Origin: Bryobacteraceae bacterium
Lineage (GTDB): Bacteria > Acidobacteriota > Terriglobia > Bryobacterales > Bryobacteraceae
DNA: 64,000 nucleotides
Assembly: GCA_036003585.1 (NCBI GenBank)
Contig: DASYSG010000045.1
Location: 37,094-101,093, forward strand
Direction: 5' to 3'
The translations under genes and the position numbers were made by a program. The notes beneath the pieces are model-generated. The model did no database searches, was not told the DNA's origin, and saw only the letters and a list, made by a program, of their open reading frames with translations. Positions within the stretch are counted from its first letter, which is position 1, and every line of letters begins with the position of its first letter. This document shows, in pieces, positions 4,334 through 55,445 of this stretch.

Positions 4334-4384
4334 GTTGGTCGGGGCGGGGCGATTTGAACGCCCGACCCCCTGCGCCCAAGGCAG
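4334..4384 (-). repeat. Orphan copy of the 3' half of tRNA-Pro (distal att-type direct repeat of the island)
   Basis: gttggtcggggcggggcgatttgaacgcccgaccccctgcgcccaaggcag is identical base for base to 55367-55417. The flanking bases differ on both sides (4333 c vs 55366 t; 4385 a vs 55418 g). It contains the anticodon loop to CCA end but no 5' half. Confidence 0.9.
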
Positions 4385-4883
4385 ATTCCGGCCAACCTGC
4401 GGAATGCCCTATTTTCAAGGCCTTCTGTTTCAAACAGTTGCAGGGACCTTGTTGAAGTCGGTTGAATCCCATGGAACTCTTGGATTTCCGCAGCTACAGA
4501 ATTATCTACAGAGGAACTTCGGAACCAGATCGCCAGCTTGAGTATCCTTGCGGATAATCGGTCAGGAAACGCAGAATGGTCGATGCACGTGGAGATTCGT
4601 CCGGTGCTATTCGCGGAGTCACTTCAGCGCGTATCAAATGGCCGAACTTCGCTTTACTTGTACTTAGCGGGAGTCGCGCGGACAGTTGCGGCGTCTTCCG
4701 TGGGTTAGTCTACATCAAGCAGCCTTGCGGTGAGACCGCAAAACCAAACCCTCTAAGAAGGCCTGATAGGTGAGGTGAGCCCTAGGGGACGATTTCAGAA
4801 CATCGTTCTAATAAGTAAGTGGTCGTTGTCCCGGATTGCTAGAAATTGACGGCTACTCGTCGGAAGATTTGCAGCGCCTACTG

Positions 4884-6026
4884 TTAAGCCACTGCCCACA
4901 CTTTCGTGTCACGACCGGCGGTGACGAGATATTTGCCGTCTGGCGTAAACCGGCCGGAAATAAACGCCAGCGAGTAGCTCTCCGCAATTGGAGAATGGGT
5001 CACCTTGCCGAGCTGGACACCCGTCATAGCATCGTAAACGTTAACCGTCGGCTCAATGCGGCCGTCCGGCAACACAACCCGCTCTCCCACGGCGATCAGC
5101 TTTCCTTCAGGGGAGATCGATACTCCGGCTGCCGCGCTTATTGGAAGTCTCGCTAGGATTGAACCGTCCGCTCCGTCATAGATCCCGACGTAAAATTTGC
5201 GTGGATGGAGAAATGATTGATCGTATACGGCTGCCACGACCCAGCGGCCGTCCGGCGTCATTCCCACCTGCCAGGCGCCGCGATAGTAATCCGGTTCGAC
5301 GGGCCGCGTCCAGATCACGCTCAGGTCCTCCGTGCTGCGGCACACGAGCGCATGGTCTACGTTATAGACAACCCTCTTGCGATCAGCGGAGAAAGCGGGC
5401 GAATAACTATCCGGATCGTTGGGATAGCGCCTCGGGGAGGGTGCGAACGGTGCTCGCAGTGTTTCTTGATAATCAGGAAGTTTCGCACGGAAGAGCGTCA
5501 TTGAATGGTGGGTTTCAGAGCTGTGTTCGTCACCTAAAAGAAACGGCACGGCAAGGGGGAAGTACCCGAGGTGATAGTCGCACAGTCTCGTGTTTAGGTT
5601 CCCCGTCTTTAGATCTATAACTGCCTGTTGATAGCGTCGCCGATACCGCTCGTTTTCATCGATCAGGCTTGTCTGCGCATACAGGACTTCACCATCTGCG
5701 AAGAAGCGGGCGAGGAGCACGTCTTCACGGAGCTGCATGTCATAAATGGGTGTTCCGCTCTCTAACTCGACAACTTGCAGTTTTCCCCGGCGGTTGAATC
5801 CAAGACAGGCGTGGCGGCCGTCCGGCGAGATATCGAACGGACTAGCGTTTCTAAACTGTCTGATCAGCTTGAACTGAAGCTTGCCTCCAGAGCGTTGCTG
5901 ATTGATATTCGGCCCTTGTTGCCCACGCGCACGCTCAGCGCAGAACGGCATCGCCACGACTCCTGTGCAGGCCCTTAGGAATCGACGTCTGGATGCGTAT
6001 CGATCCGCACGGTCGATCATGGACAT
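4884..6026 (-). CDS. Tat-signal beta-propeller protein (WD40/TolB-like 'PDG' repeats); candidate immunity partner of the upstream RHS toxin
   Basis: The long ORF 4884..6116 overlaps the RHS gene. Internal ATGs at 6026 and 6020 give 'MSMIDRADRYASRRRFLRACTGVVAMPF' with a twin-arginine motif SRRRFL. The ATG at 6020 overlaps the RHS stop as ATGA (6017-6020). Repeats include 'ISPDGRH', 'MTPDGRWVV', 'ISPEGKLIAV' and 'FTPDGKYLVTAGRDTKVWAV'. Confidence 0.65.
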   Translation of the reverse strand: MSMIDRADRYASRRRFLRACTGVVAMPFCAERARGQQGPNINQQRSGGKLQFKLIRQFRNASPFDISPDGRHACLGFNRRGKLQVVELESGTPIYDMQLREDVLLARFFADGEVLYAQTSLIDENERYRRRYQQAVIDLKTGNLNTRLCDYHLGYFPLAVPFLLGDEHSSETHHSMTLFRAKLPDYQETLRAPFAPSPRRYPNDPDSYSPAFSADRKRVVYNVDHALVCRSTEDLSVIWTRPVEPDYYRGAWQVGMTPDGRWVVAAVYDQSFLHPRKFYVGIYDGADGSILARLPISAAAGVSISPEGKLIAVGERVVLPDGRIEPTVNVYDAMTGVQLGKVTHSPIAESYSLAFISGRFTPDGKYLVTAGRDTKVWAVA

Positions 6027-9000
6027 CCCCCTCCGATGCCCCGCGCGCTTAGCCCTGCTGCAACGTTGTGGTAGTTGGTATCCCCGCCAGTGAAACCATT
6101 TGCAATCACATTCCAACCGTGCCCGAGCCGGCCGCTTAAAGGTCCGAAGCTGGGATTGTGCGGGTCAATGTCTATGTTGATTACGTATTGACCGGACTGG
6201 CTGTCGAAGCCCCCCGTAATCTGCATGGAGTTGTCGGCAACATTCTGCCGATAATTCATGCCCGAATGGAAGGGATCCCAGCCTGCGTTGCTAAAGCACT
6301 TGGGGTCTCCGACAGTTGTGCAGATGCTCGCGACAAGGTCGTTATAGGCTCCTGCATCGCCCCTCAAGACGAGTTCGGTCATATCTGCACGTCGGCTCGG
6401 AGCCCCTGGATTATGCCCACCAGCCATCTGCATATCGAAGGTGAAGCCTGCGACCTTAATCCCAAGGGCATCTATATCGCCCTTTATTGTCGAGTAAACA
6501 AATCTCTGGGCACCCAACCAGTCTGCCCGATCGCAATTGGGATCGACGGACGGCACTGGATCGCCACCACCGCCACCTCCTCCGGCGCTGTCTGTAGGGG
6601 GATGGTAGCATTCTGGATCGTTTGGGTTGTAGTAACAGAAAGCTGGGTCTTCGCCGGGATAACAATTGACTCCGGACGGTTCGCAGTTCCCAGGGTCCGG
6701 ACCGCCACCATCGTCTGCTCCCGGTGTACCAGGCGCCTGTTGATATCGGCCCCTTGGATCAAAATAGTTAATCGGATCTCCTTCTACGTAGGAATACCGA
6801 TTCCAACTTGTGGGATCTTTTGAACTCGCCGGCACTGAATCGGGCGTTATGAACCGGCCCATCCCCGGCTGATGATACCGATTGTTCGCGTAATCGAGAC
6901 CTGTCTCACTATCCCGGAAGTAGGTAGCGAACTTTTCCTTGCCGTCCTGCGTGGCCGAGGGTCGTTCCTGGCCGTAAGGAAAGTATTTGCCGATCGAGCC
7001 GAGGCGGTCCGGCGTGACGTACCCGGTCGAGTTTTTGACGAGCTTGCCGCCGAAATAGTAATTCGTCCCGGTCTGCGTGGCCACGAGTTGCGGCTGCGTG
7101 TAGTATCCCCCGGGCTGATACTGGCTGAGATTATAGGTCGCCAGCTTCTGTCCGGTGATGCTCCAGAAGGTCACCTCATCGGTGCTGGGCAATGACCAGT
7201 TCTGGTCGTTCACAACGTAGTTCGTGCCCTTCCAAACGCGCTTGTTGCCGGGCCTATACGAATAGGCCACATCAGGAGTCACCGACCACGACGCGCCTTT
7301 GCGGACGAAGCGGTTCTCGACATCGTATGAATAGTAGCTGCCACACAGGTTGCCGTTGGCGTCCGCGCATTCGCCGGTCTGCCGGTTGGTGGCGGGGTCG
7401 TAGGTGACGTGCAGCGCCGGAGCCGTTCCAGAAGTGACGTTCTGATCAGTCAAGTTTCCGAACCCGTCGTAATTATAGCTCTGTCCCCAGCCGGAACCGG
7501 TCGCGCTGGCCAGACGGTTCAGCGAATCGTACATGTACGTAATCTGCTCGCCAGAGACGTTATCGTACTGAGAACTGATCTTGCCGTTGTTCTGCGTCGT
7601 CGGGTAAGCGTATTGAATGTCCAAGCTGCCGGATTGCAGTCTGGTCATCTGGCCGATTGAGTTGTAAGTGCGCGTCTCGTTCGGAGCGCCAGATGCCCCT
7701 GTCATCGTAAGCAATTGCCCCGTTGGTGCGTAAGTCGCATTGGCGATGATGTCGCTCGACGCCGTGAGGTCCGTGAGCTTTTGCAATCGTCCCATGCCAT
7801 CGAATGTATTCCCGAGGTTCGGTCCCGAAACCCAGGAAGATCCGTTCCAGGCGGATGGATACTGAGTCGCTGTCATGCGACCTTCGTTGTCGTAGGTATA
7901 ATTGGCGGTCAACGCCATGCTGATGTTTCCACCCTGACTGTAGTTTTGCGCGGGTTCGGAGACGCCGAGACTCTGGGAGGTCATCCCGCCGGGAGAGTTA
8001 TAGGTAAAGGTCTCAGTGAACGTGTGATCGCAGCTGGGATTCCCAAAAGCATATGCCAGCCCGCCCTTGTACTGCATGCTGGTGAGCCGACCGAGGCCGT
8101 ATTGGCCAGAGTCGTAGTAATAGTTTTCCTGCTGGCAGGTGTCCTCCGTGAATGTGCCGCCGGTGTATGTGCCACGACGTATCTGGGTCACGCGTTTGTA
8201 ACTGTCGTAGCTGTATTGAACCTGCTGACTTTTGGCGTCAGTTTTTGTTGCGAGGGTGTGGTCGGAGTTGTAGGTGTAGCTCACCGTGCCGTTCTCTGGA
8301 TTGGTCGCGCTGAGAAGCTGCGCGCCCGGCGGATTCCCGTAGTTGAACGTGCGGGTTTGCGTTCCGGTGGAACGCGGCATGCTTACCCCCGTGAGGTGGC
8401 CCAATGAATCATAACTGTAGTTGGTGAAGTATTCTGAACCGTTGCCGCCGCCGCTGCCCCAAGCTTCCAACTCAACAAGCCGGCTAAAACCACCGTGAGC
8501 AGCAGTAATATTTACTCGTATCTTTCCGGTTGTCACCGAAGAAAAAGTTAGTTTATTCCATGCCAAGGTATTACTGCTGATTGAACCTCCGGAAACCGTT
8601 TGCCATGACCCTGCACTATCGTACTGTACTTGAAAATCTGAGATACCGTATGAAGTAGCTGTCTGAGATGGCGTTATCGAAGCGCAATTGGGAAAACAAT
8701 CTGCAAGAGTGTACACATCAATTTCATTGATTGTTTTCTGGCCAGCGAAATCAATTTCAACCCACGATGGAGGTCCCGCGGCATCATTCCACCCTCCACT
8801 GTTCCCCCAGTTACTCCCAAGCTCATCACCATCATTAATGGAGGAGACTGGATAACTACTACTATATTGAGATGAGGCACTCGCCACAGCACCATTCAAA
8901 GATAGAGCGTAGTTTGTTGAAGAACCCCCGCCTGAGCTCGACGGGTTAGGCTCATTCACCTGAACCAGCTGGCCAAGCGCGTTCATGGTGTATTTCTTCC

Positions 9001-12000
9001 AATGGCCCGCTGCGTCAGTAACCGTCACGGTATTGCCTTGGTAGAGATAGTTCGTAGTGCCCGTGGTGTCCGTCCCTGCCGTTGTCGATGTGAGTGTGCG
9101 TCCGATGCCGTCATAGGTATAAGTTGTCCAGACTGGGGTCGCTCCAGGGGCATGCGGCAAAGCGGTCTGCTTCACCTTGCCTGTTGGCGAGCAACCGCAG
9201 GAATCGTACTGGGTCTCGGCGACTGACACCGTGCCCGACGCATTCCCGGTTTCCGTTTTTATGGTCCTGCCCAGGCCGTCCATAGAGTTCCTCGTCCAAC
9301 GGCCATTCACTGCGCTTGTCACAGTCGGCGGATTACTGGTATCGCTGTATGTATTGGTGGTGGTCGCCCCAAAAGGTGATGTTGTCGAGCTGGGCCGGGC
9401 GACAACATCGTAGCCAATGGTCATCTGAGCGCCGTTGGGATCTGTTTCATTGGTCAGACCCAGGAATGAGTTGTAGGTCAGACTGGTCGAAAAACCGCCG
9501 ACTGTGATCTGGGACGGAGCCGCGTAATTGGTTGTGCCGGTGCTGGTGAGCGAGGTCGTCACGCCATTGGAAGTTGTGCTGGTGACGCCGCCCGCGACAT
9601 CGTAATGCATCGTCTGGGTCCCGGCAGGAGAGGTAATGGTTGTTGGATTACCGCGCAGAGTGATTCCGCTCATCGAGGTATCCCAATCCAATATTCCCGA
9701 AAGACTAGTCAGTCCAAACTCGTCATACGTAACCGTTGTCGTTGGCGAGGTGGCCAGCCGGTTGAAGATATAACGCGATGCGTAGCCGCTCCCGGTTTGA
9801 TACGTGAAATTGTCAGTTCGAATTGGCGTTGAGAGATTGCCGTAATCAAAAGTATTCACCTGTGTGACATTGCCGTGCGTGTCCACGCTTTGGGTAGTCT
9901 TCTTTTGCGCGGCGTAGGATTGTCCCGGATCTGCCGTCACCAACGCCGTGCCGATGTAATAGTTGCCGACGGAGTCTTGAACCCAGGTGTAATCGTTTCG
10001 AATCTTTGCGACCTGCCCCGGCATCTGGCGACCCTCGTACTGGGTCACCAAACCAGCATTTGCGCCGCTAGTGGCGAATGCCCAGTACTTCTCACCAACG
10101 CCTCCTGGGTCGTCTAGTTGCGTGAACTGATGGATATTGGCGCTCGGCGTGAGCTCATGGGCAAACGGATATTGTGTCGAAGAGACCCCATCCTTGGACA
10201 GACGCCGGTGCACGACTTCCCGGTAGCTCAGGTTGTTCGCATACGTGGTCGTGCTGTAATCGTATGCAAGATAGCCTTTATACGGCAGCACTACTTGCGT
10301 GAGCTCTCCGAAAGCGTTGTAGGTAAACTCCTGATCCGTATTGTTCGCAATAACGACAACGCTCTGTAGCATTGTGACGGTGCCATAGGAAGTACTGTCG
10401 AATGGTGAGGAAAGTGACTGATTCGGTGAATAGTTGAACGTGTAGTTCTCGCCGGTCGGGACATAGACATTCATTCCAGTCAGGTGCGGAGGAGAGTCCG
10501 CGTTGTAATTGAACACGTAGGTGTTTGTACCTGGCGTCCGGACATCTTGAATAGTATTGATGCGGGCGCTGGAATCGGCCCACGTAGCTCCCAGACCGGT
10601 CTTGTAATGGACGATGATCTGGTTGCCGTTTGCATCTTCCATGAGCGTCGGATACATGACGCCCGAATCAGCCTCGGAGATGGCAGATGTGCAGCCGAAG
10701 TACCAGAAGCTTCCATCCCGGAAGTGTAGAGTCGAAGCAGCAGCGTCATAATAGACGTACACGGACTCTTTGGAACTCCACACGTTGCCAGAGTTCTGAT
10801 CGAGCCGATACTCTGCGCCAGTAGAATCGGTGAAAAGATAGTAATTGACAGAATACGCGTCGGCGAACTTCGGAGTAATCGAACCCGCCATCAGTCGCCA
10901 GCCGAAGCCGTAACCTACATCAGCTCCATACTTCCAAGTTCTGTTTGCATCGTAGCGCCAGTCCTGAGAGTTGTAATTGAGATTGAAGCCCACGCTCCAG
11001 CCATTCCGAGCTTTTGCATTGATTAGCGGCAGCGTGTAATTCAGATTCCCGGAGAGAACGTCAATATTCTCGCCAGTAGCACCCCAGTATGCGCCCGTTG
11101 TCCGCACGCCAACGCGGCGGCCTTCGGGGCTAAAGGCTGGAGTAGTCACAACGAAGTCTGTTGCTGCGGCGTTACCGTGAAAGTCCACGGGCTTGAGGGT
11201 GTAGGTGTAGGTGGTGCTTGGAGCAACCGTGCTATCGGAAAAGCTGAGATCGCTGGTGCTGCCAACCAACCACCCGTTCCGGTAAATCTCGTAATCGTAA
11301 ATTCCGGTCCCATTTGCATCATCGGAAGCCGCTGGCCACTGAATGTCGACGTGATTATAAAACGGGGTAGCGGAGATGCTTCCCGAAGGGATGGCACCTG
11401 GTGCGATCGAATCGAGATTCCCAAGATCGATCTCGGAGAGAAGCGGTCCCGAGGCAGGTTGATATGAGTCGAATCCTAGCTCTACCGCCATCCGGCCCGA
11501 GGTGTAAGTCGTGTCCGAGTATTGTAAGAAACGCACATTATCCACGTAGCCTAGGATCACTCCAGTCGAATTGCGCACGAACCGAAAAGTCATAAGGTCG
11601 TGACCCGGTCCGAAGCCGCCCGAGGACACGACAGTGAATTGGCCGCTGTCGATCCTTGACAAGGAGTAACTCGAACCAGTAGAGCCGAACTGAAAGTCGA
11701 TCTTGTAGCCGGAGCCAGCGGATGGCGCTCCGGGCGCGGACAGGTCCGTGCTCGCGCTCAAATAGACCGTTGCACTCCCTGGAAAAGTCGTCGTCGCCAT
11801 CCGGTAGGTCAGCTTCACCTCGCCTGGACTGGCAGTCGTACTGGGATAGGTCATCCGGCCCGATCCGCCGTAACTATTAAAGGCGATTCCGCCAAAACCG
11901 CCGTTCGAGTACACGGCCAGTTGGCCGTTATAGTTCTGTACGATCCAATTGGCCCAGACGGGACTTGCGCCATTCTCCGTGTAGTAGTAGGAGTACGCTC

Positions 12001-12061
12001 CTCGTGCAAACCACACAGCTACGACGACGAGCAGAGGAACGGCCCACAGGGCGCGCTTCAT
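6017..12061 (-). CDS. RHS/YD-repeat polymorphic toxin (2014 aa) with signal peptide, FN3-like domain, inserted F5/8-type-C (discoidin)-like domain and a ~243-aa Cys-rich C-terminal domain
   Basis: Signal peptide MKRALWAVPLLVVVAVWFARGAYS and FN3-like 'DIQWPAASDDANGTGIYDYEIYRNG'. YD repeats include 'YTYDGIGRTLT', 'YSYDSLGHLTGV', 'YTYDNEGRMTAT', 'YMYDSLNRLASAT' and 'YNYDGFGNLTD'. The RHS core end is 'NRYHQPGMGRFITPDSV...NRYSYVEGDPINYFDPRG'. The discoidin-like stretch is 'SSINDGDELGSNWGNSGGWNDAAGPPSWVEIDFAGQKTINEIDVY'. Confidence 0.9.
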   Translation of the reverse strand: MKRALWAVPLLVVVAVWFARGAYSYYYTENGASPVWANWIVQNYNGQLAVYSNGGFGGIAFNSYGGSGRMTYPSTTASPGEVKLTYRMATTTFPGSATVYLSASTDLSAPGAPSAGSGYKIDFQFGSTGSSYSLSRIDSGQFTVVSSGGFGPGHDLMTFRFVRNSTGVILGYVDNVRFLQYSDTTYTSGRMAVELGFDSYQPASGPLLSEIDLGNLDSIAPGAIPSGSISATPFYNHVDIQWPAASDDANGTGIYDYEIYRNGWLVGSTSDLSFSDSTVAPSTTYTYTLKPVDFHGNAAATDFVVTTPAFSPEGRRVGVRTTGAYWGATGENIDVLSGNLNYTLPLINAKARNGWSVGFNLNYNSQDWRYDANRTWKYGADVGYGFGWRLMAGSITPKFADAYSVNYYLFTDSTGAEYRLDQNSGNVWSSKESVYVYYDAAASTLHFRDGSFWYFGCTSAISEADSGVMYPTLMEDANGNQIIVHYKTGLGATWADSSARINTIQDVRTPGTNTYVFNYNADSPPHLTGMNVYVPTGENYTFNYSPNQSLSSPFDSTSYGTVTMLQSVVVIANNTDQEFTYNAFGELTQVVLPYKGYLAYDYSTTTYANNLSYREVVHRRLSKDGVSSTQYPFAHELTPSANIHQFTQLDDPGGVGEKYWAFATSGANAGLVTQYEGRQMPGQVAKIRNDYTWVQDSVGNYYIGTALVTADPGQSYAAQKKTTQSVDTHGNVTQVNTFDYGNLSTPIRTDNFTYQTGSGYASRYIFNRLATSPTTTVTYDEFGLTSLSGILDWDTSMSGITLRGNPTTITSPAGTQTMHYDVAGGVTSTTSNGVTTSLTSTGTTNYAAPSQITVGGFSTSLTYNSFLGLTNETDPNGAQMTIGYDVVARPSSTTSPFGATTTNTYSDTSNPPTVTSAVNGRWTRNSMDGLGRTIKTETGNASGTVSVAETQYDSCGCSPTGKVKQTALPHAPGATPVWTTYTYDGIGRTLTSTTAGTDTTGTTNYLYQGNTVTVTDAAGHWKKYTMNALGQLVQVNEPNPSSSGGGSSTNYALSLNGAVASASSQYSSSYPVSSINDGDELGSNWGNSGGWNDAAGPPSWVEIDFAGQKTINEIDVYTLADCFPNCASITPSQTATSYGISDFQVQYDSAGSWQTVSGGSISSNTLAWNKLTFSSVTTGKIRVNITAAHGGFSRLVELEAWGSGGGNGSEYFTNYSYDSLGHLTGVSMPRSTGTQTRTFNYGNPPGAQLLSATNPENGTVSYTYNSDHTLATKTDAKSQQVQYSYDSYKRVTQIRRGTYTGGTFTEDTCQQENYYYDSGQYGLGRLTSMQYKGGLAYAFGNPSCDHTFTETFTYNSPGGMTSQSLGVSEPAQNYSQGGNISMALTANYTYDNEGRMTATQYPSAWNGSSWVSGPNLGNTFDGMGRLQKLTDLTASSDIIANATYAPTGQLLTMTGASGAPNETRTYNSIGQMTRLQSGSLDIQYAYPTTQNNGKISSQYDNVSGEQITYMYDSLNRLASATGSGWGQSYNYDGFGNLTDQNVTSGTAPALHVTYDPATNRQTGECADANGNLCGSYYSYDVENRFVRKGASWSVTPDVAYSYRPGNKRVWKGTNYVVNDQNWSLPSTDEVTFWSITGQKLATYNLSQYQPGGYYTQPQLVATQTGTNYYFGGKLVKNSTGYVTPDRLGSIGKYFPYGQERPSATQDGKEKFATYFRDSETGLDYANNRYHQPGMGRFITPDSVPASSKDPTSWNRYSYVEGDPINYFDPRGRYQQAPGTPGADDGGGPDPGNCEPSGVNCYPGEDPAFCYYNPNDPECYHPPTDSAGGGGGGGDPVPSVDPNCDRADWLGAQRFVYSTIKGDIDALGIKVAGFTFDMQMAGGHNPGAPSRRADMTELVLRGDAGAYNDLVASICTTVGDPKCFSNAGWDPFHSGMNYRQNVADNSMQITGGFDSQSGQYVINIDIDPHNPSFGPLSGRLGHGWNVIANGFTGGDTNYHNVAAGLSARGIGGGCP

Positions 12062-12480
12062 TGTGGCCTCCCGGAAAGCGAACTTAACTTGAACCCGGCC
12101 TTATATTTTTGGAACTCCTGTTCAATCTGTTCCTTCGTGGCGGTGCCACGCTCAAAAGCTTTAACACCTGCCGCCTGGGAGTTTACGATCGGTTTCAAAT
12201 CTGCCGGCGTCGCGCCGACAAACTCCACCAACGCGAAGTTGCCGTCGTCGCTCACTTGCATGGAGTAGCCGATTACGCCAGACCTATCGCCATTCTTGAG
12301 CTTGGCTGCCTGCTCTGCCGGGGCTGGCGTAAACATCGGGCGCTTGGGATTGTCAGGGGTTCCTGCTCCGATCAGCGGCACGACGGCCCAAACCCGGTGA
12401 TACATCATCTCTGGGGAAACCCGATTCTGAGCGAACAGGGTATTGATCAACAGCAGAAGCAGCGCGACGCAACGGAGCAT
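12058..12480 (-). CDS. Small secreted protein encoded first in the RHS-1 operon (function unknown)
   Basis: The internal ATG at 12480 is preceded by GGAGGAGG (revcomp of 12483-12490) and gives the signal peptide MLRCVALLLLLINTLFAQ. Its stop overlaps the RHS start as ATGA (12058-12061). Confidence 0.6.
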   Translation of the reverse strand: MLRCVALLLLLINTLFAQNRVSPEMMYHRVWAVVPLIGAGTPDNPKRPMFTPAPAEQAAKLKNGDRSGVIGYSMQVSDDGNFALVEFVGATPADLKPIVNSQAAGVKAFERGTATKEQIEQEFQKYKAGFKLSSLSGRPQ

Positions 12481-12814
12481 GGCTTTCCTCCTCCACCGAG
12501 GTAGGCTGGTCCCGCACGAATCGCGTCCGAGCACACATCGGGCGTGCACATCGTGACTAGAAATCCGGCAGTCCGGGAGGCGACTGCCAGCCTCCGAATA
12601 TACCTGGGATGCCCGATATTAATTCAGGACGGTAACGATAGTCAACAGTTGTTGTGTTGCTAATTGGTGTAGGTGAACTAATTATGATCTTAATACCGGC
12701 TAGGGAAAGTCCTATGAGATCGTTCTCGCGATGCCAATAATCGTCCGCTCAGGAAACCTCGGTCGCCCTACGCTGTTGCGCTTTTCTTTCGGACGGTCCA
12801 GTGGAAGAGCAATC

Positions 12815-14359: not shown

Positions 14360-14566
14360 TTAGGGTTTGCGCCATTTATCCCGATGACCAACATCTGTGT
14401 TGCGGACTCGCTCGACCAGAACCGGACCTCCGTTGTTGAGTTCTTTGGCTCGTTCGATTGCCTCGGCTTGGGTCGGCTCTATCGCGCTCGCACGTTCTGA
14501 GCCACCACGGCGGACAGCGTAATCCCCTTCGGGACGACGTTCCACAAATAGTTCGTCTTTTGCCAT
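14360..14566 (-). CDS. DUF2188-like small protein
   Basis: 'MAKDELFVERRPEGDYAVRRGGSERASAIEPTQAEAIERAKELN...' follows the DUF2188 pattern as I recall it (Y-V-x-G-W-V-type hairpin, 'T-x-EAIxxAKELA'). Confidence 0.6.
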   Translation of the reverse strand: MAKDELFVERRPEGDYAVRRGGSERASAIEPTQAEAIERAKELNNGGPVLVERVRNTDVGHRDKWRKP

Positions 14567-14863
14567 GAGAAAAGGACCTCCTATTGGGATTATACGTCCA
14601 GAAATATAGGGGCCACTTATTCACTTCAAATTCACGGTCCAGATCTCAACGTGAATTCAATCGAACCGGAATGAGGCACACCATGCCTGGAAAGAAGGTG
14701 CCGCCAGCTCATGTTGGTGCAAGATGGGTGGTTTTGCGTTCGGCGGAAGTATGCCTGCAGGTAACCAGCATTTGGCTCATTTGACCGAGCCTCTAATTTC
14801 GCATAAGCTGACAACATCTCGACCAACCTGCTCTGCGCCTAAGGACGGCAGACGACGTCACAG

Positions 14864-15781
14864 ATGCCTACAACACAAAACTCGATTCCGGAGCACCAAA
14901 ATAATTCCGAATCCTTGAGTCTGATCTCAGGGGCGAATCAGCTATATCGAGCCGTGAAACGAGTTGCCGTCGGCCAGATAGCCTCGACCGTTTGCGTGCC
15001 ACTTGGATTTTCCATAGTTTCACTCATCAATGCGGCGGTAGGGCCTTGGTCAGCGTTGTACAGCTTATTGATCGCCCTAGTGGATCCTCTGTTGTTCGAT
15101 AAATGGCAAAAAATATGGAAGACCCAAGCCGCCAGACTGCAGGAGCAATTCGACTGCGAGCTTTTCGGGCTGAGTTGGAACGAACTGATTTGCGGTCAAC
15201 CGCCATCGGCCGAGCTGATCCACCGCGCCGCTAATCGATACAGGGGGCCTTCCCTCAGAGATTGGTATCCAGTTTCAGTAGGCACGCTTCCGTTGGTGGC
15301 TGCCCGGCTCGTTTGCCAACGATCTAGCATTGCATGGGACTCGGAGCTCAGGCGTCGTTATGTATTCGCGCTAAAAATCGCGGGCGCGATTCTGTTCGCA
15401 AGTGTTCTGGTCATTGCGTTTGCCATAAACCTTTCACTCCAGGGCTTTATTTTTTCGGTGCTAGCTCCTGCGGTGCCCATACTACAGTGGGGCGTTAAGG
15501 AAGTTCAACTACAACAAGATTCCCTAGACCGCCTTGACCGTCTATTCGCATACTCCGATCGTACATGGCGCGAAATGCTTGCTGGGATCGTTGTTGGCGA
15601 TGTTCTTTCGAGCGCATCGAGGGCTATTCAGGACCAACTGTATTTGCATCGTCAATCCAACCAGGCGATCTTGGAGTCGCTATATGGATTCCTGCGACGA
15701 AACCAAGAGCACGAGATGCAGGCTGTAGCCAAAACACTGGTCGAAGCGGCCTCCAAAAACGAATCGCAGTTGGAGAGATGA
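14864..15781 (+). CDS. S-4TM-like membrane protein (SMODS-associated putative pore-forming effector)
   Basis: The N-terminus 'IPEHQNNSESLSLISGANQLYRAVKRV' is followed by hydrophobic helices ('VCVPLGFSIVSLINAAVGPW', 'YSLLIALVDPLLF', 'IAGAILFASVLVIAFAINLSLQGFIFSVLAPAV'). The gene lies 25 nt upstream of a SMODS-type nucleotidyltransferase gene. Confidence 0.6.
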   Translation: MPTTQNSIPEHQNNSESLSLISGANQLYRAVKRVAVGQIASTVCVPLGFSIVSLINAAVGPWSALYSLLIALVDPLLFDKWQKIWKTQAARLQEQFDCELFGLSWNELICGQPPSAELIHRAANRYRGPSLRDWYPVSVGTLPLVAARLVCQRSSIAWDSELRRRYVFALKIAGAILFASVLVIAFAINLSLQGFIFSVLAPAVPILQWGVKEVQLQQDSLDRLDRLFAYSDRTWREMLAGIVVGDVLSSASRAIQDQLYLHRQSNQAILESLYGFLRRNQEHEMQAVAKTLVEAASKNESQLER

Positions 15782-15806
15782 CTTAACAAACTAACTCCAT
15801 AGCAAC

Positions 15807-16667
15807 ATGGCGTACACGGTGGCAGTATCGTTTGACCAATTTATAGATCGAATCAGCATCTCGGGTGATCAGAACTCAACGGCGACCGCCCGACGCGATC
15901 GCGTCGTTTCACTTCTTGAAAACACCTTCACGATCTTGGAAGCGTTCCCCACGGGTTCGATACCGAAACGAACAGCGGTGACGGGGTCAGATCTAGATGT
16001 CATGGTGGTTTTGCATTACGGGAAGCACATTGAGGGAAAGACGCCTACGCAGGTACTTGGATCGGTGCGAAACGCTTTGGCGAAATACCGCACGGGCGTT
16101 CGCCGTAATGGCCAAGCTGTCACCCTTGGCTATGAAAGCTGGCCAGATGTTGACATTGTTCCAGTATCGAGAACTGTGGCTGATAATGGTGACGTACTCC
16201 ACTACAACGTGCCCGATGAGAATCGAGGAGTATGGATACCGTCTAAGCCCAAACGCCATACGACGAACATAGCGAATCGCGTCGCCACATTCGGAACAGA
16301 GTTTCGAAGGATCATTCGAATGCTCAAATGGTGGAATCAGCAACACAGCGAGTATCTTCAGTCATTCCATATCGAGGTCTTGGCGCTTTCGATTTTAAAC
16401 GATAGCTTCTCCGACTATCTCTGGGACCTCCTAAGATTCTTCGATCAGGCTTGCGAACTCGTCAAGGCGCCGTTGCGGTATGAGGGTGCTTATGTCGATG
16501 AGTATCTTACACCGGGAGATAGAGCCGAGGCGTTGAAGCGTTTACAGACGGCTACAGAGAGGTCGCGTCAAGCATGGCACGCAACATATGGAGGACGAGC
16601 GAATCATAAGGAAGCAATCGAGAACTGGAGGCAAGTATTCGGGGACAGATTTCCGGCTTACGGCTGA
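15807..16667 (+). CDS. SMODS/CD-NTase-like nucleotidyltransferase
   Basis: Pol-beta-type NTase signature 'FPTGSIPKRTAVTGSDLDVMVVL' (G-S ... D-x-D) plus a third acidic residue in 'WPDVDIVPV'. The 286-aa size and the adjacent S-4TM-like gene support the call. Confidence 0.65.
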   Translation: MAYTVAVSFDQFIDRISISGDQNSTATARRDRVVSLLENTFTILEAFPTGSIPKRTAVTGSDLDVMVVLHYGKHIEGKTPTQVLGSVRNALAKYRTGVRRNGQAVTLGYESWPDVDIVPVSRTVADNGDVLHYNVPDENRGVWIPSKPKRHTTNIANRVATFGTEFRRIIRMLKWWNQQHSEYLQSFHIEVLALSILNDSFSDYLWDLLRFFDQACELVKAPLRYEGAYVDEYLTPGDRAEALKRLQTATERSRQAWHATYGGRANHKEAIENWRQVFGDRFPAYG

Positions 16668-16912: not shown

Positions 16913-17371
16913 GTGGAAGCAGTTGTGGAGGTGGAGGTAAAATTGAGTATTCAGGTCAATCTCCCAGGGGAATGCTTCGACGCTATCGCGGAAGCTTTCC
17001 GGTGGAAGATTGCCCATAATCAAGCTAATGACCAGGATGTATCCGCGGTCAAAGGGATTTCACGTAGGCTGTCCTCACAGAAACTGAATCCTGGCAGGAA
17101 ACCGGCACTGAGCGATGGACGGACCAATGATAATTCGCGGACGTACGTCGGCCTGATTCTCGACGAGGATGAACTCGTGTTGATCGTAAACGTGCTCCAG
17201 CAGCGTGATAACTCGACGCATGCGACGCTATGGGAGGATCCGCAGTATCAGAAGGCGATCAACATACTCTGGAGTGCGTTTGAGATCGAATTAGCTGCTT
17301 CAGGACGAAAGCCGCCCATGCGTGAAGTGTTGGACCCTGCCGTACATCACAGCGGAACCGGCCAAAACTGA
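16913..17371 (+). CDS. Hypothetical protein
   Basis: Open frame with a GTG start at 16913. The alternative TTG at 16943 follows GGAGG (16933-16937). No recognisable motifs. Confidence 0.4.
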   Translation: MEAVVEVEVKLSIQVNLPGECFDAIAEAFRWKIAHNQANDQDVSAVKGISRRLSSQKLNPGRKPALSDGRTNDNSRTYVGLILDEDELVLIVNVLQQRDNSTHATLWEDPQYQKAINILWSAFEIELAASGRKPPMREVLDPAVHHSGTGQN

Positions 17372-17403: not shown

Positions 17404-18192
17404 CTACGGGCAGCCTTGGGTTATTTCTGCAAAATCGTCCATCAAAAAACTCCGCCAGAGTGCGCAATCAACGGACGCCGCTACCGGCGAAAACGCCTTC
17501 TGCGTCGCGTACGGCCTGGTGGGTGGTGGGATGTAACCAGGTTCGCCATGTTGGATCAAAATCCCCTGAGCGTCACGAACATGCGGACCGAAATTCACCC
17601 AGCAATTTTGCAATCGCGTTTCTGCCACCAGCGCGGGAATAGCCGCCGGGCTGTGTATGGTCGCGTGAAATCGAAAAGCATTCTCTTCACCAACCGGGCC
17701 GAATTGGAACCCGGTGGCGGCGTGGCCGACGAGATCATGGACGGCACGAAACACATCATTCCATGACCAGCCTGGTGCCGCCCATGCCGCAAGCGGATGA
17801 TCTGGCGGCATGCCGCTGGTCGGATACACGAACAGGCGGCGGTTGCGGCGAACATCCGCCCGCATCTCGCGGCTATTCCGGTACGGCTGCCCATCACCCC
17901 GCCACAGGGAAAAGGTGTAACCAGCCCCGGAGAAAAGCTGGAACTGTTCCCCGATTTCCGCGATGAGCGCCCGGTAGCTTTCGAGCGTCCGGAATTCTAA
18001 CGGGTGTGTCCGGCCTCGTGGTGGGCAGAACCGGGCGAACCGCTCATCGGGCCGGCTCATCTCCCAGTGCGCGGGAAGATCACGCCCACGCCTGCGCGCC
18101 CAGTCCCGGATGATGCCGAGCAGGTGCGGGTTCGGGTCGGGCAAACCGGCACAGACAGACGTTATGTGATGCCGCGTTCGCATAATTCGCAT
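17404..18192 (-). CDS. Hypothetical 262-aa protein, last gene of the Ubl/JAB/E1 cassette
   Basis: Long ORF overlapping the E1 gene end by ~30 nt. 'VFRAVHDLVGHAATGFQFGPVGEENAFRFH' is conserved-looking, but I cannot assign a family. Confidence 0.55.
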   Translation of the reverse strand: MRIMRTRHHITSVCAGLPDPNPHLLGIIRDWARRRGRDLPAHWEMSRPDERFARFCPPRGRTHPLEFRTLESYRALIAEIGEQFQLFSGAGYTFSLWRGDGQPYRNSREMRADVRRNRRLFVYPTSGMPPDHPLAAWAAPGWSWNDVFRAVHDLVGHAATGFQFGPVGEENAFRFHATIHSPAAIPALVAETRLQNCWVNFGPHVRDAQGILIQHGEPGYIPPPTRPYATQKAFSPVAASVDCALWRSFLMDDFAEITQGCP

Positions 18193-18941
18193 TTCTCCCT
18201 CTGCGCAATCATCGAACCGCCATCCAGGCTCGGATCAGAAAGGCTGAGCCGCCGGTAATTCCACGTTCGCGGCCGCTTCATGAGTAGCGTGTCCACGGCG
18301 TAGACCGCGAGCGATCCCACCGCCTGGAGGATGTCGGCGATGGCGGGAGTTCCCGGGCATGGAAAGCGGTCGTCATTCACGATGTCCGGGAACATGCACG
18401 CGATGCAAGGGCCGTCTTTATCCTGGACGAACACGTAGCCATGGTCTGCGTCCCGGCTGACGGCGGTAAAAATGATGGGAATCTCCTTTCGACGGAAGTA
18501 CCAGCCCGCTAAAACGCGGGCCGGATTGTTGTCGACGCCGCAGATCGCGACATCGCAGGTGCTGAAGGGAGTGCCGATCACTTCTTCCAGCGGGAACGGA
18601 TAACCGCGGATCTCCGTTTCCACGATGCACTCCGACTCCAGGTTCCTGGCGAGCGCGATGGCCTTGTTCTCGCCCACATCCTTTATATAGAACCGCTGGC
18701 GGTTAAGATTGCTGGGCTCCACGATGTCGTCATCGACCAGGGTGATCCGCCCGATGCCCTTCCTGACCAGGGTGGGCGCGATTTGTGAGTTGATCCCGCC
18801 CGCCCCGATGCACAGCACGCGGCTTTTCGAGAAGATTGCCTGGTCGAATCCGGAAATCCTCTTTTGCCGATCGTCAGCTCCATCAACTGCTTTGCCATGG
18901 AGCTTAACGGAGGTTTTTGAGTCGGTAAATGCCGGGCGCAT
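18162..18941 (-). CDS. Minimal ThiF/MoeB-type E1-like adenylyltransferase
   Basis: 'SRVLCIGAGGINSQIAPTLVRKGIGRITLVDDDIVEPSNLNRQRF' and Cys pairs 'GPCIACMF', 'FPCPG', 'KCELC'. The start 'MRPAFT' (ATG 18941) was chosen because the paralog at 54117 starts 'MHPAFT'. Confidence 0.8.
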   Translation of the reverse strand: MRPAFTDSKTSVKLHGKAVDGADDRQKRISGFDQAIFSKSRVLCIGAGGINSQIAPTLVRKGIGRITLVDDDIVEPSNLNRQRFYIKDVGENKAIALARNLESECIVETEIRGYPFPLEEVIGTPFSTCDVAICGVDNNPARVLAGWYFRRKEIPIIFTAVSRDADHGYVFVQDKDGPCIACMFPDIVNDDRFPCPGTPAIADILQAVGSLAVYAVDTLLMKRPRTWNYRRLSLSDPSLDGGSMIAQREKCELCERGIT

Positions 18942-19563
18942 AGTGCTCCACTCCTTCGCCGTAGATTTCGAGATCAAAGTTCTGGTCGAGCCGCACGAAA
19001 CGAACGTAACCGTCTCGGCTGAAGATGGCCATCAGGGCCAGATGCCCAGCTTGTTCGAGCCGACGCTGGAAATTCTGATCGGTGCCCGAGGGATGGGTCG
19101 CGTCCGGACCGTTTCCTGGGTGGCTGTGAAAGTGGGCCAGGAATTTGTGCCCGAACTGTTCGAGCCGGATCAGCAGATTGTGGGTGGATGGCATGTCCGC
19201 CACTACGCCCATCCGGCTGCGGCGCTGGTGAGCGAACTCTGCCCACTGATCGAGGACGTGCACGCCCTCGATCTCCGAGCCCGTGATGAAAAAGAACTGC
19301 TCATCCGGATCGGCTGTCAGCTTCTTCGCGCATTCATGCAAGAACAAAGAACTGACGGCGTAGCGCCGCGGCTGATCCCCTGTCCGGGTGTTTTCTTCAA
19401 CGATCCGGTCAAGGCTCGCGAGAAATTCGTTCGTCCGCCGGATTTCCGTTGTGAAGCGCGCGGTGCCTTTACGGGCACGCGCCGCGTCATTGAACCGGCC
19501 GATCAGCTTTTCGCGCTTCTCGACCAGCACTTTCTTCTTTTCGTCGATATGGGTAGTTTTCAT
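18904..19563 (-). CDS. JAB/MPN (JAMM) metallopeptidase-like protein
   Basis: 'FLAHFHSHPGNGPDATHPSGTD' is an HxH...SxxD motif with a longer spacer. The ATG at 19563 overlaps the upstream stop as ATGA (19560-19563). Confidence 0.75.
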   Translation of the reverse strand: MKTTHIDEKKKVLVEKREKLIGRFNDAARARKGTARFTTEIRRTNEFLASLDRIVEENTRTGDQPRRYAVSSLFLHECAKKLTADPDEQFFFITGSEIEGVHVLDQWAEFAHQRRSRMGVVADMPSTHNLLIRLEQFGHKFLAHFHSHPGNGPDATHPSGTDQNFQRRLEQAGHLALMAIFSRDGYVRFVRLDQNFDLEIYGEGVEHYAPGIYRLKNLR

Positions 19564-19952
19564 TGTTCGTATGCCTCTGTGATCAGTCGTTCGATGGTTA
19601 TGATTCCCGAGCTCACATCTTTGGGCCGTCGCGCCATATGCACCAGATACCAGTCGTCTCCGCGAGGAGCAAAACAGGTCCAATGGCTGTGGCGTCGAAT
19701 CTGCCGCGAGGGACTATAAAGGAAGAAATCGATGCTCGACCAACGCTCCTGGATCTGGCCTTGAAAGGTCGCGTACGCGGTCTGATACGATCCCGTGTAG
19801 TTGTTGCCGTTGCGCGTCCAGCCGCGTTCCCGCCAATACGGAATTTCACGGCGCAGGACGGAAATTGAGGGGGCGTGCCCCCGTACCACCTGCGAGAAGA
19901 GCTCGCGGATGGCATTGGGGGCAGGCCGGGTGCCGAGTTCTTTTACGCGCAT
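19560..19952 (-). CDS. 130-aa protein in the E2 position of the cassette; candidate E2/RWD-like fold
   Basis: It lies between the Ubl and JAB genes with overlaps at both ends. 'IDFFLYSPSRQIRRHSHWTCFAP' resembles a flap-plus-Cys arrangement. The fold call is weak. Confidence 0.5.
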   Translation of the reverse strand: MRVKELGTRPAPNAIRELFSQVVRGHAPSISVLRREIPYWRERGWTRNGNNYTGSYQTAYATFQGQIQERWSSIDFFLYSPSRQIRRHSHWTCFAPRGDDWYLVHMARRPKDVSSGIITIERLITEAYEQ

Positions 19953-20179
19953 ACGGTGATGCCAACCTCGGCTTTGGTGCTCGCGAAAATCTTCTCGCCA
20001 TCTTTCACTTTGTCGTAGACCGACTCGGCATTGGCGAAGAAGGGCTCATTCGGTCCCTTGCTTAACAGGTAGTCTGCAAGGTTCAACTGGGCGAGGATGT
20101 CACCGGCGGTCGTGCCCGACTCGATTTCCACATCCCGGATCTGACCGGTTCCGGCGACAACGACGGATAGCTTTTTCAT
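19943..20179 (-). CDS. 78-aa candidate ubiquitin-like (beta-grasp) protein
   Basis: The ATG at 20179 is preceded by AAGGAGAA (revcomp of 20187-20194). 'MKKLSVVVAGTGQIRDVEIESGTTAGDILAQLNL...GEKIFASTKAEVGITVCA'. The small size and position upstream of the E2-like/JAB/E1 genes fit a Ubl. Confidence 0.55.
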   Translation of the reverse strand: MKKLSVVVAGTGQIRDVEIESGTTAGDILAQLNLADYLLSKGPNEPFFANAESVYDKVKDGEKIFASTKAEVGITVCA

Positions 20180-20310
20180 GATGTAAATTCTCCTTATATT
20201 AAAATCTGGGAGGCGGGTCCTCTCCCCTGCGGGTTGATCGATACGCCGCCCATCGTGGGCGGCGAAAAAAAGGAAGAGGCCAAGAAGATTCTTGGCCTCA
20301 GGGCGCCGGT

Positions 20311-20622
20311 TCATAAGTCCTGCGCGGGTACCACATCCGTGAGCCTGCCCTCGCGGAACGAAAGATCGCGTTCCACGGCGAGGCCGAGCCAAGTCCGGAC
20401 ACGTTCGAGCTCCGAGAGCAGAAAATAGCCGAACTCGCTTTCCAGGCCCACGACAAAACCAAAGAACAAATAATCGTCTTCCTGCTGGCTGCCTTCCGTG
20501 ACGTACCATGTCCATCCGGTACCCGGCAGGAAGAACTTCGCGTAAACGACGGGCTCGGCTTCGTGCTCCTGGGAATAGAGAGCCGGAAGCCGGTTCCGCA
20601 GTTCGTCAGTCAGAAGCTTCAC
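20311..20622 (-). CDS. DUF2958-like protein
   Basis: 'LRNRLPALYSQEHEAEPVVYAKFFLPGTGWTWYVTEGSQQEDDYLFFGFVVGLESEFGYFLLSELE' matches the DUF2958 pattern I know from plasmids and ICEs. The GTG start overlaps the integrase-frame stop as GTGA (20619-20622). Confidence 0.7.
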   Translation of the reverse strand: MKLLTDELRNRLPALYSQEHEAEPVVYAKFFLPGTGWTWYVTEGSQQEDDYLFFGFVVGLESEFGYFLLSELERVRTWLGLAVERDLSFREGRLTDVVPAQDL

Positions 20623-30612: not shown

Positions 30613-30852
30613 ATGACGGATTTCGAGCAGCTGCAAAAACTGGTTGGGCCGGAGGTAAACAATTGGAGCGAAGCGGAGCGGCAGGAGGCGAATGACAACT
30701 TGCGCCAGTACGTCGCTCTCGTGCTGCGTGTTCTTGAACGGCTCGAACTCGATCCGGAAGCAAACGCGCGCTTTGAAGCTTTGACAGAGTGTCGAAGGGG
30801 CCATAGTATGAATGACAAAGAGGCGCAAAACAATTCTTCGACCCATACATGA
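30613..30852 (+). CDS. Small protein coupled to the serine recombinase gene
   Basis: The ATG at 30613 gives 'MTDFEQLQKLVGPEVNNWSEAERQEANDNLRQYVALVLRVLERLE'. Its stop overlaps the recombinase start as ATGA (30849-30852). Confidence 0.45.
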   Translation: MTDFEQLQKLVGPEVNNWSEAERQEANDNLRQYVALVLRVLERLELDPEANARFEALTECRRGHSMNDKEAQNNSSTHT

Positions 30853-48091: not shown

Positions 48092-48616
48092 TCAACGCCG
48101 CCGAAAGCGCCCGCTTGCAGGCGCACGACCCTCGATCGCCTTGCCAAGGAGGCAGAGCCTTCGGCAACAACGCAGAACATCCCAAGGTTCAGTGTCAGGG
48201 ATTTGATCGGATATTTCTTCCGCTGACTGGTCATTGTTGGACAGTACTTCTAGCACTCGCCGCGGAAGCTCGTCCTCGTCCGCGTCAGCTTCGTCTATCC
48301 ACGACTCACCGTATCGCGCTCCAAACAGAAGAATATCATCACGCCATATGATGAAGTGGCTCTTGCAATCGGTGTCGCGCCACACCGACGGGTATACGCT
48401 CGTTCCCTTGGACGATTCATACATGCGCCATGCGGGACCGGCACGGCGGTCGAGATTCACAGGCACCTCAGCGCCGCACCCGCAAGGGCAACAGAGGATC
48501 AACCAGCGCGGTCCCTGTCTATCCACGATGACTGCATCTCCCGCCCGCTTCAAATGTGCGCTCGCTTTCTCGCGCGAACCCACCCTTGCTTTGATAGAAA
48601 AACGTTTGTTCAACAT
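48092..48616 (-). CDS. Cys-rich 'CPCGC' protein, DUF6527-like, with an acidic C-terminal extension
   Basis: 'RWLILCCPCGCGAEVPVNL...SVYPSVWRDTDCKSHFIIWRDDIL'. The ATG at 48616 overlaps the upstream gene by 7 nt. Confidence 0.6.
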   Translation of the reverse strand: MLNKRFSIKARVGSREKASAHLKRAGDAVIVDRQGPRWLILCCPCGCGAEVPVNLDRRAGPAWRMYESSKGTSVYPSVWRDTDCKSHFIIWRDDILLFGARYGESWIDEADADEDELPRRVLEVLSNNDQSAEEISDQIPDTEPWDVLRCCRRLCLLGKAIEGRAPASGRFRRR

Positions 48617-50343: not shown

Positions 50344-50344
50344 C

Positions 50345-51679: not shown

Positions 51680-52074
51680 CGTGGTGGATTCATTCGCTGA
51701 AGGATCGCCCATAAAAAGCTCTCAAGCCGACTGCGGTTCGGATCCCACACCTGAAGATGCCAAGAAAACCATGTCAGTGGACGTCCCGCAACGAGATCGT
51801 ACGGTAATGGAGTTCCTTCGTTCGCGTTCTGCGGAATAGCACCATTGGAGAGGCGCACTGGTGGAGCGACCCAGAAGCAGTCGGGCTTGGCGGCAGGATA
51901 CCCAGGAGGGGCGATGAAAAAGATGTCAACCTTCCGAGGGCTCCAGCCCTCCGGTAGCTCGACGCCCTTAATCGTGATGAGATACGAGCCGTCCGAGCGG
52001 CGCTGAATGTCGGCGCCCTGATTCTTGAACTCCTTTAGATAACCCTGGAGTTCTATAAATTGTTCGCCAATCAT
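51676..52074 (-). CDS. Prokaryotic E2/UBC-like protein (Prok-E2_E-like)
   Basis: 'VELPEGWSPRKVDIFFIAPPGYPAAKPDCFWVAPPVRL' has a UBC-like PxxYP flap and a candidate catalytic Cys. It overlaps both neighbours as ATGA. Confidence 0.65.
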   Translation of the reverse strand: MIGEQFIELQGYLKEFKNQGADIQRRSDGSYLITIKGVELPEGWSPRKVDIFFIAPPGYPAAKPDCFWVAPPVRLSNGAIPQNANEGTPLPYDLVAGRPLTWFSWHLQVWDPNRSRLESFLWAILQRMNPPR

Positions 52075-52316: not shown

Positions 52317-52338
52317 GCAGTACTCCTTTTTGCGGTTT

Positions 52339-55368: not shown

Positions 55369-55445
55369 TGGTCGGGGCGGGGCGATTTGAACGCCCGACC
55401 CCCTGCGCCCAAGGCAGGTGCGCTACCAGGCTGCGCTACGCCCCG
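55369..55445 (-). tRNA. tRNA-Pro (anticodon UGG)
   Basis: The reverse complement folds as a 77-nt cloverleaf: CGGGGCG-TA-GCGC-AGCCTGGTA-GCGC-A-CCTGC-CTTGGGC-GCAGG-GGGTC-GGGCG-TTCAAAT-CGCCC-CGCCCCG-A-CCA. The anticodon is TGG. Confidence 0.9.

Follow-up and report, generated by a model that had tools for sequence, protein, structure and literature searches.

An S-4TM effector and a compact CD-NTase as a probable two-gene Type I CBASS on a tRNA-Pro island of an uncultured Bryobacteraceae bacterium

Introduction

Can a membrane protein and a nucleotidyltransferase, encoded side by side, constitute a phage defense system on their own, and if so, of which type and by what mechanism? The question is raised by a stretch of 64,000 nucleotides (nt) from an uncultured environmental bacterium of the Bryobacteraceae (NCBI GenBank assembly GCA_036003585.1, contig DASYSG010000045.1, positions 37,094 to 101,093 of the forward strand), referred to here as the window. 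At positions 14864–16667 it encodes a protein of 305 amino acids (aa) followed by one of 286 aa. A reading of the letters made without database searches, hereafter the original prediction, had described them as a minimal pair resembling an antiphage signaling system based on cyclic oligonucleotides (CBASS), with an S-4TM membrane effector and a SMODS nucleotidyltransferase. The two open reading frames (ORFs; 14864–15781 and 15807–16667, both on the + strand and 25 nt apart) and the motifs quoted from them were exactly as described.

The pair is very probably a Type I CBASS composed of a nucleotidyltransferase of the cGAS/DncV-like type (CD-NTase) and an S-4TM effector, to which phage defense and killing through the membrane are attributed by analogy. 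Each of the two proteins is an intact, full-length member of its family that keeps the catalytic and family-invariant residues, the genes are inherited together, and nothing was found that contradicts the CBASS assignment. The locus is a moderately divergent member of its class, which is well catalogued and has been validated by experiment: the class is already present in Pfam, PADLOC, and the NCBI annotation pipeline, occurs on hundreds of plasmids, and has been found to protect Escherichia coli. Locally, the locus is peculiar only in its effector-first gene order, as in its nearest relatives, and in its position on a defense-rich tRNA-Pro island. Its value lies in a clean annotation, that of a Type I CBASS on a tRNA-Pro defense island of an uncultured bacterium, and in the addition of a divergent member (nearest cyclase relative 74–76% identical, nearest effector relative 58% identical).

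Results and Discussion

Assignment of the cyclase

The downstream gene (15807–16667, +; ATG start) encodes a compact 286-aa protein with the catalytic residues G50, S51, D62, D64, and D116; GSIPKRTAVTGSDLDVMVV corresponds to residues 50–68 and DVDIVP to residues 114–119. Its identification as a SMODS/CD-NTase enzyme was borne out by hidden Markov model (HMM) searches. Pfam SMODS matched with E = 1e-13 and 52.2 bits (cutoff 26.5), and 42 PADLOC 'oligonucleotide-cyclase' models matched full length, the best of them, PDLC00823, with E = 8.3e-97 and 322 bits over positions 1–285 of 285. All 14 significant sequence matches in the PDB were bacterial CD-NTases, headed at about E = 5e-20 by 6P82, 6P8U, and 6P8J; these entries represent CdnD of Pseudomonas aeruginosa ATCC27853 (PaCdnD), with 6P82 being nearest (E = 5.5e-20).

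The structural comparison that the original prediction had proposed pointed to the same enzymes. A Foldseek search of the PDB with the AlphaFold2 model (predicted local distance difference test, pLDDT, 94.1; predicted template modeling score, pTM, 0.90) returned CD-NTases in all of the top 38 matches, in line with a bi-lobed fold of the cGAS/DncV kind. PaCdnD was again the best relative (template modeling score, TM-score, 0.82–0.84; E = 8e-20; 25% identity), after which came E. coli CdnC, Enterobacter CdnD02, and CdnB of Deinococcus and Bacteroides. Among solved enzymes CdnD is thus nearest, ahead of CdnC and CdnB, and 'clade-D-like' is used for the window cyclase as a lead only. G50, S51, D62, D64, and D116 were invariant in an alignment of 34 homologs (54–74% identity), D62 and D64 align with D62 and D64 of PaCdnD, and the three catalytic motifs (GS, DxD, and D) were all present in 80 of 89 loci. 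Taken together, the intact residues and the modeled fold suggest that the cyclase would be enzymatically competent.

PaCdnD resembles the window cyclase in length (approximately 300 aa), in its compact form without a long loop, and in a C-terminal F-G-x-x-F-P motif. It differs in belonging to a Type III CBASS under HORMA regulation (6P8U is the CdnD:HORMA2 complex), whereas the window locus has no HORMA or TRIP13 gene. In the window model no residue had a pLDDT below 50 and only two were below 70, and the surface-exposed, disordered activation loop of approximately 30 aa that protease-sensing CD-NTases have between the lobes was absent. Clade-D clusters lacking activation loops gave no protease response (bioRxiv 10.64898/2026.03.04.709575). 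As to phage carriage, IMG/VR viral contigs gave no match to the cyclase family.

A non-signaling nucleotidyltransferase, of the antibiotic, MNT, or KNTase type or belonging to a toxin-antitoxin system, with an unrelated membrane protein next to it, would also carry GS and DxD motifs, which are common to all Pol-beta nucleotidyltransferase families, and the Pfam SMODS score of 52 bits is modest. However, the only other Pfam match was a sub-threshold poly(A)-polymerase palm, and antibiotic, MNT, or KNTase enzymes, clustering with which had been named as the refuting outcome, occurred neither among the 14 PDB sequence matches nor among the top 38 folds. Together with the full-length PADLOC cyclase matches, these results effectively refute the explanation, to which the near-obligate adjacency to a CBASS membrane effector described below is also opposed; its probability is negligible.

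Assignment of the effector

The upstream gene (14864–15781, +; ATG start) encodes the 305-aa effector, with four predicted transmembrane (TM) helices in two hairpins and conserved segments predicted to be cytoplasmic; the signature IPEHQN...LYRAVKR spans residues 8–33. It had been called an S-4TM protein, and the Pfam S_4TM profile (PF18159) indeed matched from one end to the other (E = 3.9e-81; 273 bits, cutoff 26.9), aligning residues 6–291 with profile positions 1–290 of 291. Nine PADLOC CBASS '4TM effector' models matched as well, the best being PDLC00721 (E = 6e-89, 296 bits, full length). Judged by full-length profile matches with E values from 4e-81 to 8e-97, the two ORFs are real genes rather than chance. 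The start codons of both are credible because the N-termini of effector and cyclase align with those of their homologs.

Kyte-Doolittle analysis placed hydrophobic hairpins at approximately residues 34–79 and 165–214, equivalent to four TM helices. The AlphaFold2 model (pLDDT 94.7) was all-helical, with helices at 15–55, 57–101, 144–187, and 192–239 and two further C-terminal helices, so that both approaches agree with the roughly four hydrophobic helices first noted. The four main helices, at 41–48 residues, reach well past the bilayer. Clusters of lysine and arginine occur at residues 29–33, 80–91, and 163–165; by the positive-inside rule, the N-terminus, residues 80–165, and the C-terminus were assigned to the cytoplasm.

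Among 174 diverse family members, 19 positions were conserved at 90% or more, and the window effector retains 18 of these (Q12, Y28, A90, E94, F96, D97, W105, E117, W134, Y135, C151, Q152, R153, P202, P205, Q256, R263, and M285), the sole change being consensus A23 to G. Except for P202 and P205 in TM4, these positions fall in the predicted cytoplasmic segments. Regional conservation followed the same pattern, peaking at 0.52 in residues 80–165 and dropping to its minimum in the TM hairpins (0.35–0.39). The most conserved residues (E94, F96, D97, W105, E117, W134, Y135, C151, Q152, R153, Q256, and R263) are confined to the stretch between the hairpins and the C-terminal part, both predicted to be cytoplasmic, and were therefore taken as a candidate nucleotide-sensing site. 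How the effector might sense a nucleotide had been left unclear in the original prediction, and sensing through these cytoplasmic segments is our working hypothesis.

When 1.84 billion representative proteins were searched with a profile, 2,929 S-4TM clusters were obtained at E ≤ 0.001, and almost all of the cluster members listed were stand-alone proteins of approximately 300 aa. An internal duplication, with the protein composed of two SLATT-like hairpins, was considered and rejected, as hhalign comparison of the N- and C-terminal halves gave a probability of 0.3 and no repeat was detectable. Cap13 was likewise rejected as a name for S-4TM, since it denotes the TM-STING protein.

Conservation of the gene pair

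To place the pair among its relatives, 88 loci (L001–L088) encoding cyclase relatives of at least 52% identity were collected and their neighboring genes classified; a single-protein query against genome contigs gave 3 loci and an alignment query against metagenomes gave 80. Among the closest relatives with neighboring sequence available (60–76% identity), an S_4TM gene lies directly upstream of the cyclase gene, at gaps of 9–25 nt, in L016, L009/L010, L011, L006, and L012. The exceptions within this identity range are L003, a truncated fragment, and L037, which has a SLATT_4 partner. Counted in either order, S_4TM stands beside a SMODS/CD-NTase gene in the window, L001, L006, L009–L013, L016–L018, and L061. 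More distant cyclase relatives have S_4TM on the downstream side or, in its place, either of two further CBASS membrane effectors that are already known.

Three effector classes were found next to the cyclase: S_4TM (15 neighboring ORFs), a PADLOC '4TM' effector of the PDLC00719 type (46 ORFs; 254–284 aa and not covered by Pfam), and a SLATT_4 '2TM' effector (17 ORFs; approximately 175 aa). One of the three adjoins the cyclase in most surveyed loci and in almost all of those with sequence extending past the cyclase. This is one constant cyclase family, at 52% identity or more, with swapped effectors. Only two genes are syntenic between the window and its nearest relatives, indicating that the two-gene pair is the evolutionary unit. 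Within it the effector diverges faster, being 51–58% identical in the nearest relatives vs. 74–76% for the cyclase.

Plasmids showed the same association. In PLSDB, the cyclase matched 909 and the S-4TM protein 902 plasmid records, with nearly identical taxon counts; about 900 records, mostly of conjugative plasmids, have both. In the two records examined, from Nostoc pNLP4 (WP_104910321/WP_104910322) and Klebsiella quasipneumoniae pC3001-4-KPC (WP_082238105/WP_020805035), genes of the same families are adjacent and co-oriented, annotated by NCBI PGAP as 'CBASS oligonucleotide cyclase' or 'nucleotidyltransferase' and 'S-4TM family putative pore-forming effector'. These pairs differ from that of the window in having the cyclase first and the effector second, and are 26–33% identical to it. 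Missing S-4TM similarity together with a lack of co-conservation had been named in advance as grounds for abandoning the assignment; the profile match and the conservation of the pair in relatives and on plasmids showed the opposite.

In several loci a second, divergent SMODS paralog, approximately 28–32% identical to the window cyclase where measured, was observed beside the cyclase-effector pair (L011 5601–6524, L012 2574–3494, L017 9825–10706, L021 1466–2239, L027 7184–7957, and L053 1008–1895). Such loci are possible two-cyclase variants of CBASS.

CBASS type and the downstream E1/JAB operon

By the usual definition, in which a cyclase and an effector are the only components, the gene content makes the locus a Type I CBASS. 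Searches of the flanking ORFs with Pfam, PADLOC, and NCBIfam profiles revealed no HORMA/TRIP13, Cap2/Cap3, or other ancillary family. A 152-aa ORF downstream (16913–17371, +) was considered as a third operon gene and rejected, since it was found only in copies of the same locus. The earlier statement that Cap2 and Cap3 are absent held for the operon itself, but overlooked a ThiF-family E1 (18162–18977, −; 271 aa) and a JAB peptidase (18904–19683, −), located 1.5 kb downstream of the pair in a separate operon. This operon (17404–20314, −) consists of a 262-aa unknown overlapping gene, the E1, the JAB, a 130-aa unknown, and a 78-aa candidate beta-grasp protein without a terminal GG. It leads on to DUF2958, a tyrosine integrase, an excisionase-like gene, Replic_Relax, and a coupling-protein-like ATPase, together the backbone of an integrative mobilizable element. 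The E1/JAB gene order resembles that of Ubl-E2-JAB-E1 systems (Ubl, ubiquitin-like protein), but for its small proteins neither Pfam nor PADLOC gave a match.

The downstream genes raise the possibility of a split Type II-like system, in which the neighboring E1 would conjugate Gly286 of the cyclase in trans and the JAB would trim it, as Cap2 and Cap3 do. Such a conjugation-primed CBASS would make Type I and Type II less sharply distinct. In its favor, the JAMM motif of the JAB, HxHx(n)SxxD, is intact, and the window, L001, and L006 each have ThiF genes no more than a few kb away from the S_4TM-cyclase pair, with none at loci carrying other effectors. Type II requires Cap2 (an E2-E1 fusion) and Cap3 (a JAB) to be encoded with the cyclase, which is not the case at the window locus. 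Here the E1 has no E2 domain, the PADLOC Cap2 models cover its adenylation core only, and no PADLOC model matched the JAB. Both are on the opposite strand, in an operon of their own with the overlapping 262-aa gene, and the GC content of that operon (58.9%) is 7 points higher than that of the CBASS pair (51.6%). No homolog of the window E1 or JAB was found in approximately 85 other loci of the cyclase family. For these reasons the downstream ThiF/JAB genes were rejected as Cap2/Cap3, and the Type I assignment follows from this.

The E1s of L001 and L006 do not repeat the window arrangement, as they are of a different, Bub type, on related elements sharing serine recombinases, and count as a single event. 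In the window itself, a second ThiF/JAB copy (53221–54400, −) stands beside the intact tRNA-Pro with no CBASS adjoining; its ThiF lacks the N-terminus and only the C-terminal 106 aa of its JAB are left, and it looks to be left over from an older element of the same family.

The C-terminus of the cyclase family is the other feature that recalls Type II. In approximately 85 of 86 full-length members it is a nearly invariant F-P-x-Y-G followed by 0–2 residues (none, S, N, T, A, or SY), resembling a Ubl-type terminus, and Type II cyclase tails, described as 'extended, disordered', end in a conserved Gly or Ala (bioRxiv 10.1101/2022.03.31.486616). The window cyclase ends at Gly286, but only five residues follow its last helix and they are confidently modeled (pLDDT ~91). 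The terminal Y-G is equally conserved whichever effector is paired and with or without an E1 nearby, and F-G-x-x-F-P, a part of the motif, also occurs in the Type III enzyme PaCdnD. The short confident tail, the motif in common with PaCdnD, and the conservation without an E1 argue for a structural role of the terminus. Overall, there is only a slight chance that the locus is a split Type II system.

Proposed mechanism

The mechanism proposed for this Type I pair draws in part on EcCdnD12-4TM, an E. coli Type I CBASS (Richmond-Buccola et al.) with the same two genes, a CD-NTase and a four-TM effector, and no ancillary genes. That system gave at least 10,000-fold restriction of phages from five families, and the DDAA mutant of its cyclase lost both toxicity and defense (bioRxiv 10.1101/2023.05.21.541620). 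EcCdnD12 belongs to clade D, in which the closest solved relatives of the window enzyme are also found. It is by architecture and clade, not by sequence identity, that the two systems are likened: enterobacterial plasmid pairs of the EcCdnD12-4TM type are only approximately 26% identical to the window proteins, and EcCdnD12-4TM comes from E. coli, the window pair from an uncultured environmental bacterium, where it lies on a tRNA-Pro island. The original prediction had considered S-4TM proteins little characterized. This stands for the effector mechanism, as our literature search found no mechanistic study of any S-4TM protein, but not for phage defense, which has been demonstrated for EcCdnD12-4TM (bioRxiv 10.1101/2023.05.21.541620).

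Effector and cyclase would be co-transcribed, and infection would switch on the compact CD-NTase, whose GS/DxD/D Pol-beta site would make a cyclic oligonucleotide from nucleoside triphosphates. The product is probably a cyclic oligonucleotide, our best guess by analogy being a cyclic trinucleotide. This guess is based on the closest solved relatives, which are CdnD enzymes, namely Enterobacter cloacae entries deposited as cyclic AMP-AMP-GMP (trinucleotide) synthase and PaCdnD, with CdnC enzymes among the neighbors too. P. aeruginosa CdnD is a cAAA synthase. The nucleotide would then bind the cytoplasmic face of S-4TM, with no separate SAVED, STING, or beta-barrel sensor domain involved, and the activated effector would disrupt or depolarize the inner membrane, so that the cell would be killed or arrested before release of phage progeny.

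In EcCdnD12-4TM, the dependence of both toxicity and defense on the catalytic aspartates of the cyclase indicates that the nucleotide activates the effector; membrane damage is suggested by this cyclase-dependent toxicity and by analogy with other CBASS TM effectors. Among the latter, Cap15 (2TM-beta-barrel) and Cap14 (2TM-SAVED) kill the cell through inner-membrane damage once nucleotide is bound (PMC10419184). These carry a recognizable soluble nucleotide-sensor domain, whereas S-4TM has none and is all-helical.

The opposite logic is also conceivable, with a constitutive cyclase whose nucleotide holds S-4TM closed until phage sponges or nucleases deplete the signal and killing ensues. Neither an activation loop nor another regulatory element is visible in the cyclase, which would suit constitutive synthesis, and there are decoy-nucleotide systems with TM effectors, as in Panoptes (PMC12657218). 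In EcCdnD12-4TM, however, the DDAA mutation abolished toxicity and defense rather than causing them, and purified EcCdnD12 was not stimulated, nor was robust basal activity reported for it, unlike for EcCdnE01 (both bioRxiv 10.1101/2023.05.21.541620). Moreover, the window enzyme is a SMODS CD-NTase and not a minimal CRISPR polymerase as in Panoptes. We regard this inverted arrangement as very unlikely. The S-4TM AlphaFold model and the conserved cytoplasmic residues offer concrete targets for mutagenesis, for which the E. coli system would be handier. Both the sensing by S-4TM and the trigger of a compact cyclase are questions of the whole class and not specific to the window locus.

Gaps in the support for the assignment and expression of the pair

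The support for the CBASS assignment has several gaps, none of which contradicts it. Of the NCBIfam equivalogs considered (CBASS_cyclase_a, CBASS_cyclase_b, and cGAS), CBASS_cyclase_b was the best match to the cyclase, with 142.5 bits below a cutoff of 200; by this measure the enzyme is a member of the superfamily outside those curated subfamilies. The S-4TM model matched no PDB fold (best E = 0.28, TM-score <0.3) and had no viral structural relative in BFVD. With neither a solved nor a viral structural relative of the fold, the effector mechanism rests on analogy. Regarding expression, a scan limited to the sigma-70 consensus recognized no promoter-like + strand site upstream of the pair, promoter and terminator counts were no higher than in shuffled controls, and no terminator was detected. 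No evident Shine-Dalgarno sequence precedes either gene, as read directly in the 25-nt spacer between them (15782–15806, +; TTAACAAACTAACTCCATAGCAAC) and ahead of the effector.

A promoter is presumed from position in the intergenic region 14567–14863 (+), between the effector start and a divergent DUF2188 gene (14360–14566, −; 68 aa). Co-transcription of the two genes is likewise likely from their arrangement, and the gaps of 9–25 nt in relatives with the same gene order are consistent with it. The DUF2188 protein matched the PADLOC candidate defense family PDC-S16 (E = 6e-9).

The lack of recognized promoter, Shine-Dalgarno, and terminator signals would also fit decayed or silent cargo, in which the sequence is intact but the pair is unexpressed or nonfunctional in its host, the more so as the island holds decayed genes such as the truncated ThiF/JAB at 53.2–54.4 kb. 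On the other hand, both ORFs are full length relative to their profiles, all catalytic and family-invariant residues are intact, the identical locus was recovered in two independent datasets, and the promoter scan covered the sigma-70 consensus only. Silent cargo is therefore considered improbable, and a working Type I CBASS is the preferred interpretation of the pair.

In BFVD, the only recurring matches to the S-4TM model were SLATT 2TM effector proteins of giant viruses, all below threshold (E > 1, TM-score ~0.3).

Genomic island

Two tRNA-Pro(TGG) calls, at 4336–4411 (−) and 55369–55445 (−), share an identical 52-nt 3' half and have different 5' halves. The shared 3' half marks an att duplication bracketing an island of approximately 51 kb, or tandem islands, integrated at tRNA-Pro and containing the CBASS pair. 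The low GC content of the pair relative to sequence outside the island (51.6% vs. 59.1%) fits horizontally acquired cargo. Other genes of the island encode an RHS-repeat protein, a Dam-type methyltransferase, and a large serine recombinase, and the E1/JAB cassette and a Bub-type operon are located there too.

The Bub-type ubiquitin-like operon (48092–53202, −) is complete, with a WYL regulator, a Multi_ubiq Ubl (81 aa, ending in FGLG), Prok-E2_E, a JAB-ThiF fusion (455 aa), TCAD9 (577 aa), and DUF6527/BubE (174 aa), and is probably a second defense system on the island. At the island edge, an RHS/YD-repeat protein of 2014 aa with an F5/8 type C domain (6017–12549, −) is followed by an overlapping 163-aa ORF; the two may be a polymorphic toxin and its immunity gene.

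A Bub operon (Multi_ubiq, DUF6791-ThiF, and DUF6527/BubE) and an M78 peptidase also occur beside the S_4TM-cyclase pair in L006 (1232–4473) and L001 (1558–4476), and L006 has, in addition, an HTH protein (CapH/CapP-like) beside the pair. The serine recombinases flanking these Bub operons are 47–54% identical, over their full length, to that of the window (30849–32438), which suggests that L001 and L006 represent a related mobile element carrying both Bub and CBASS.

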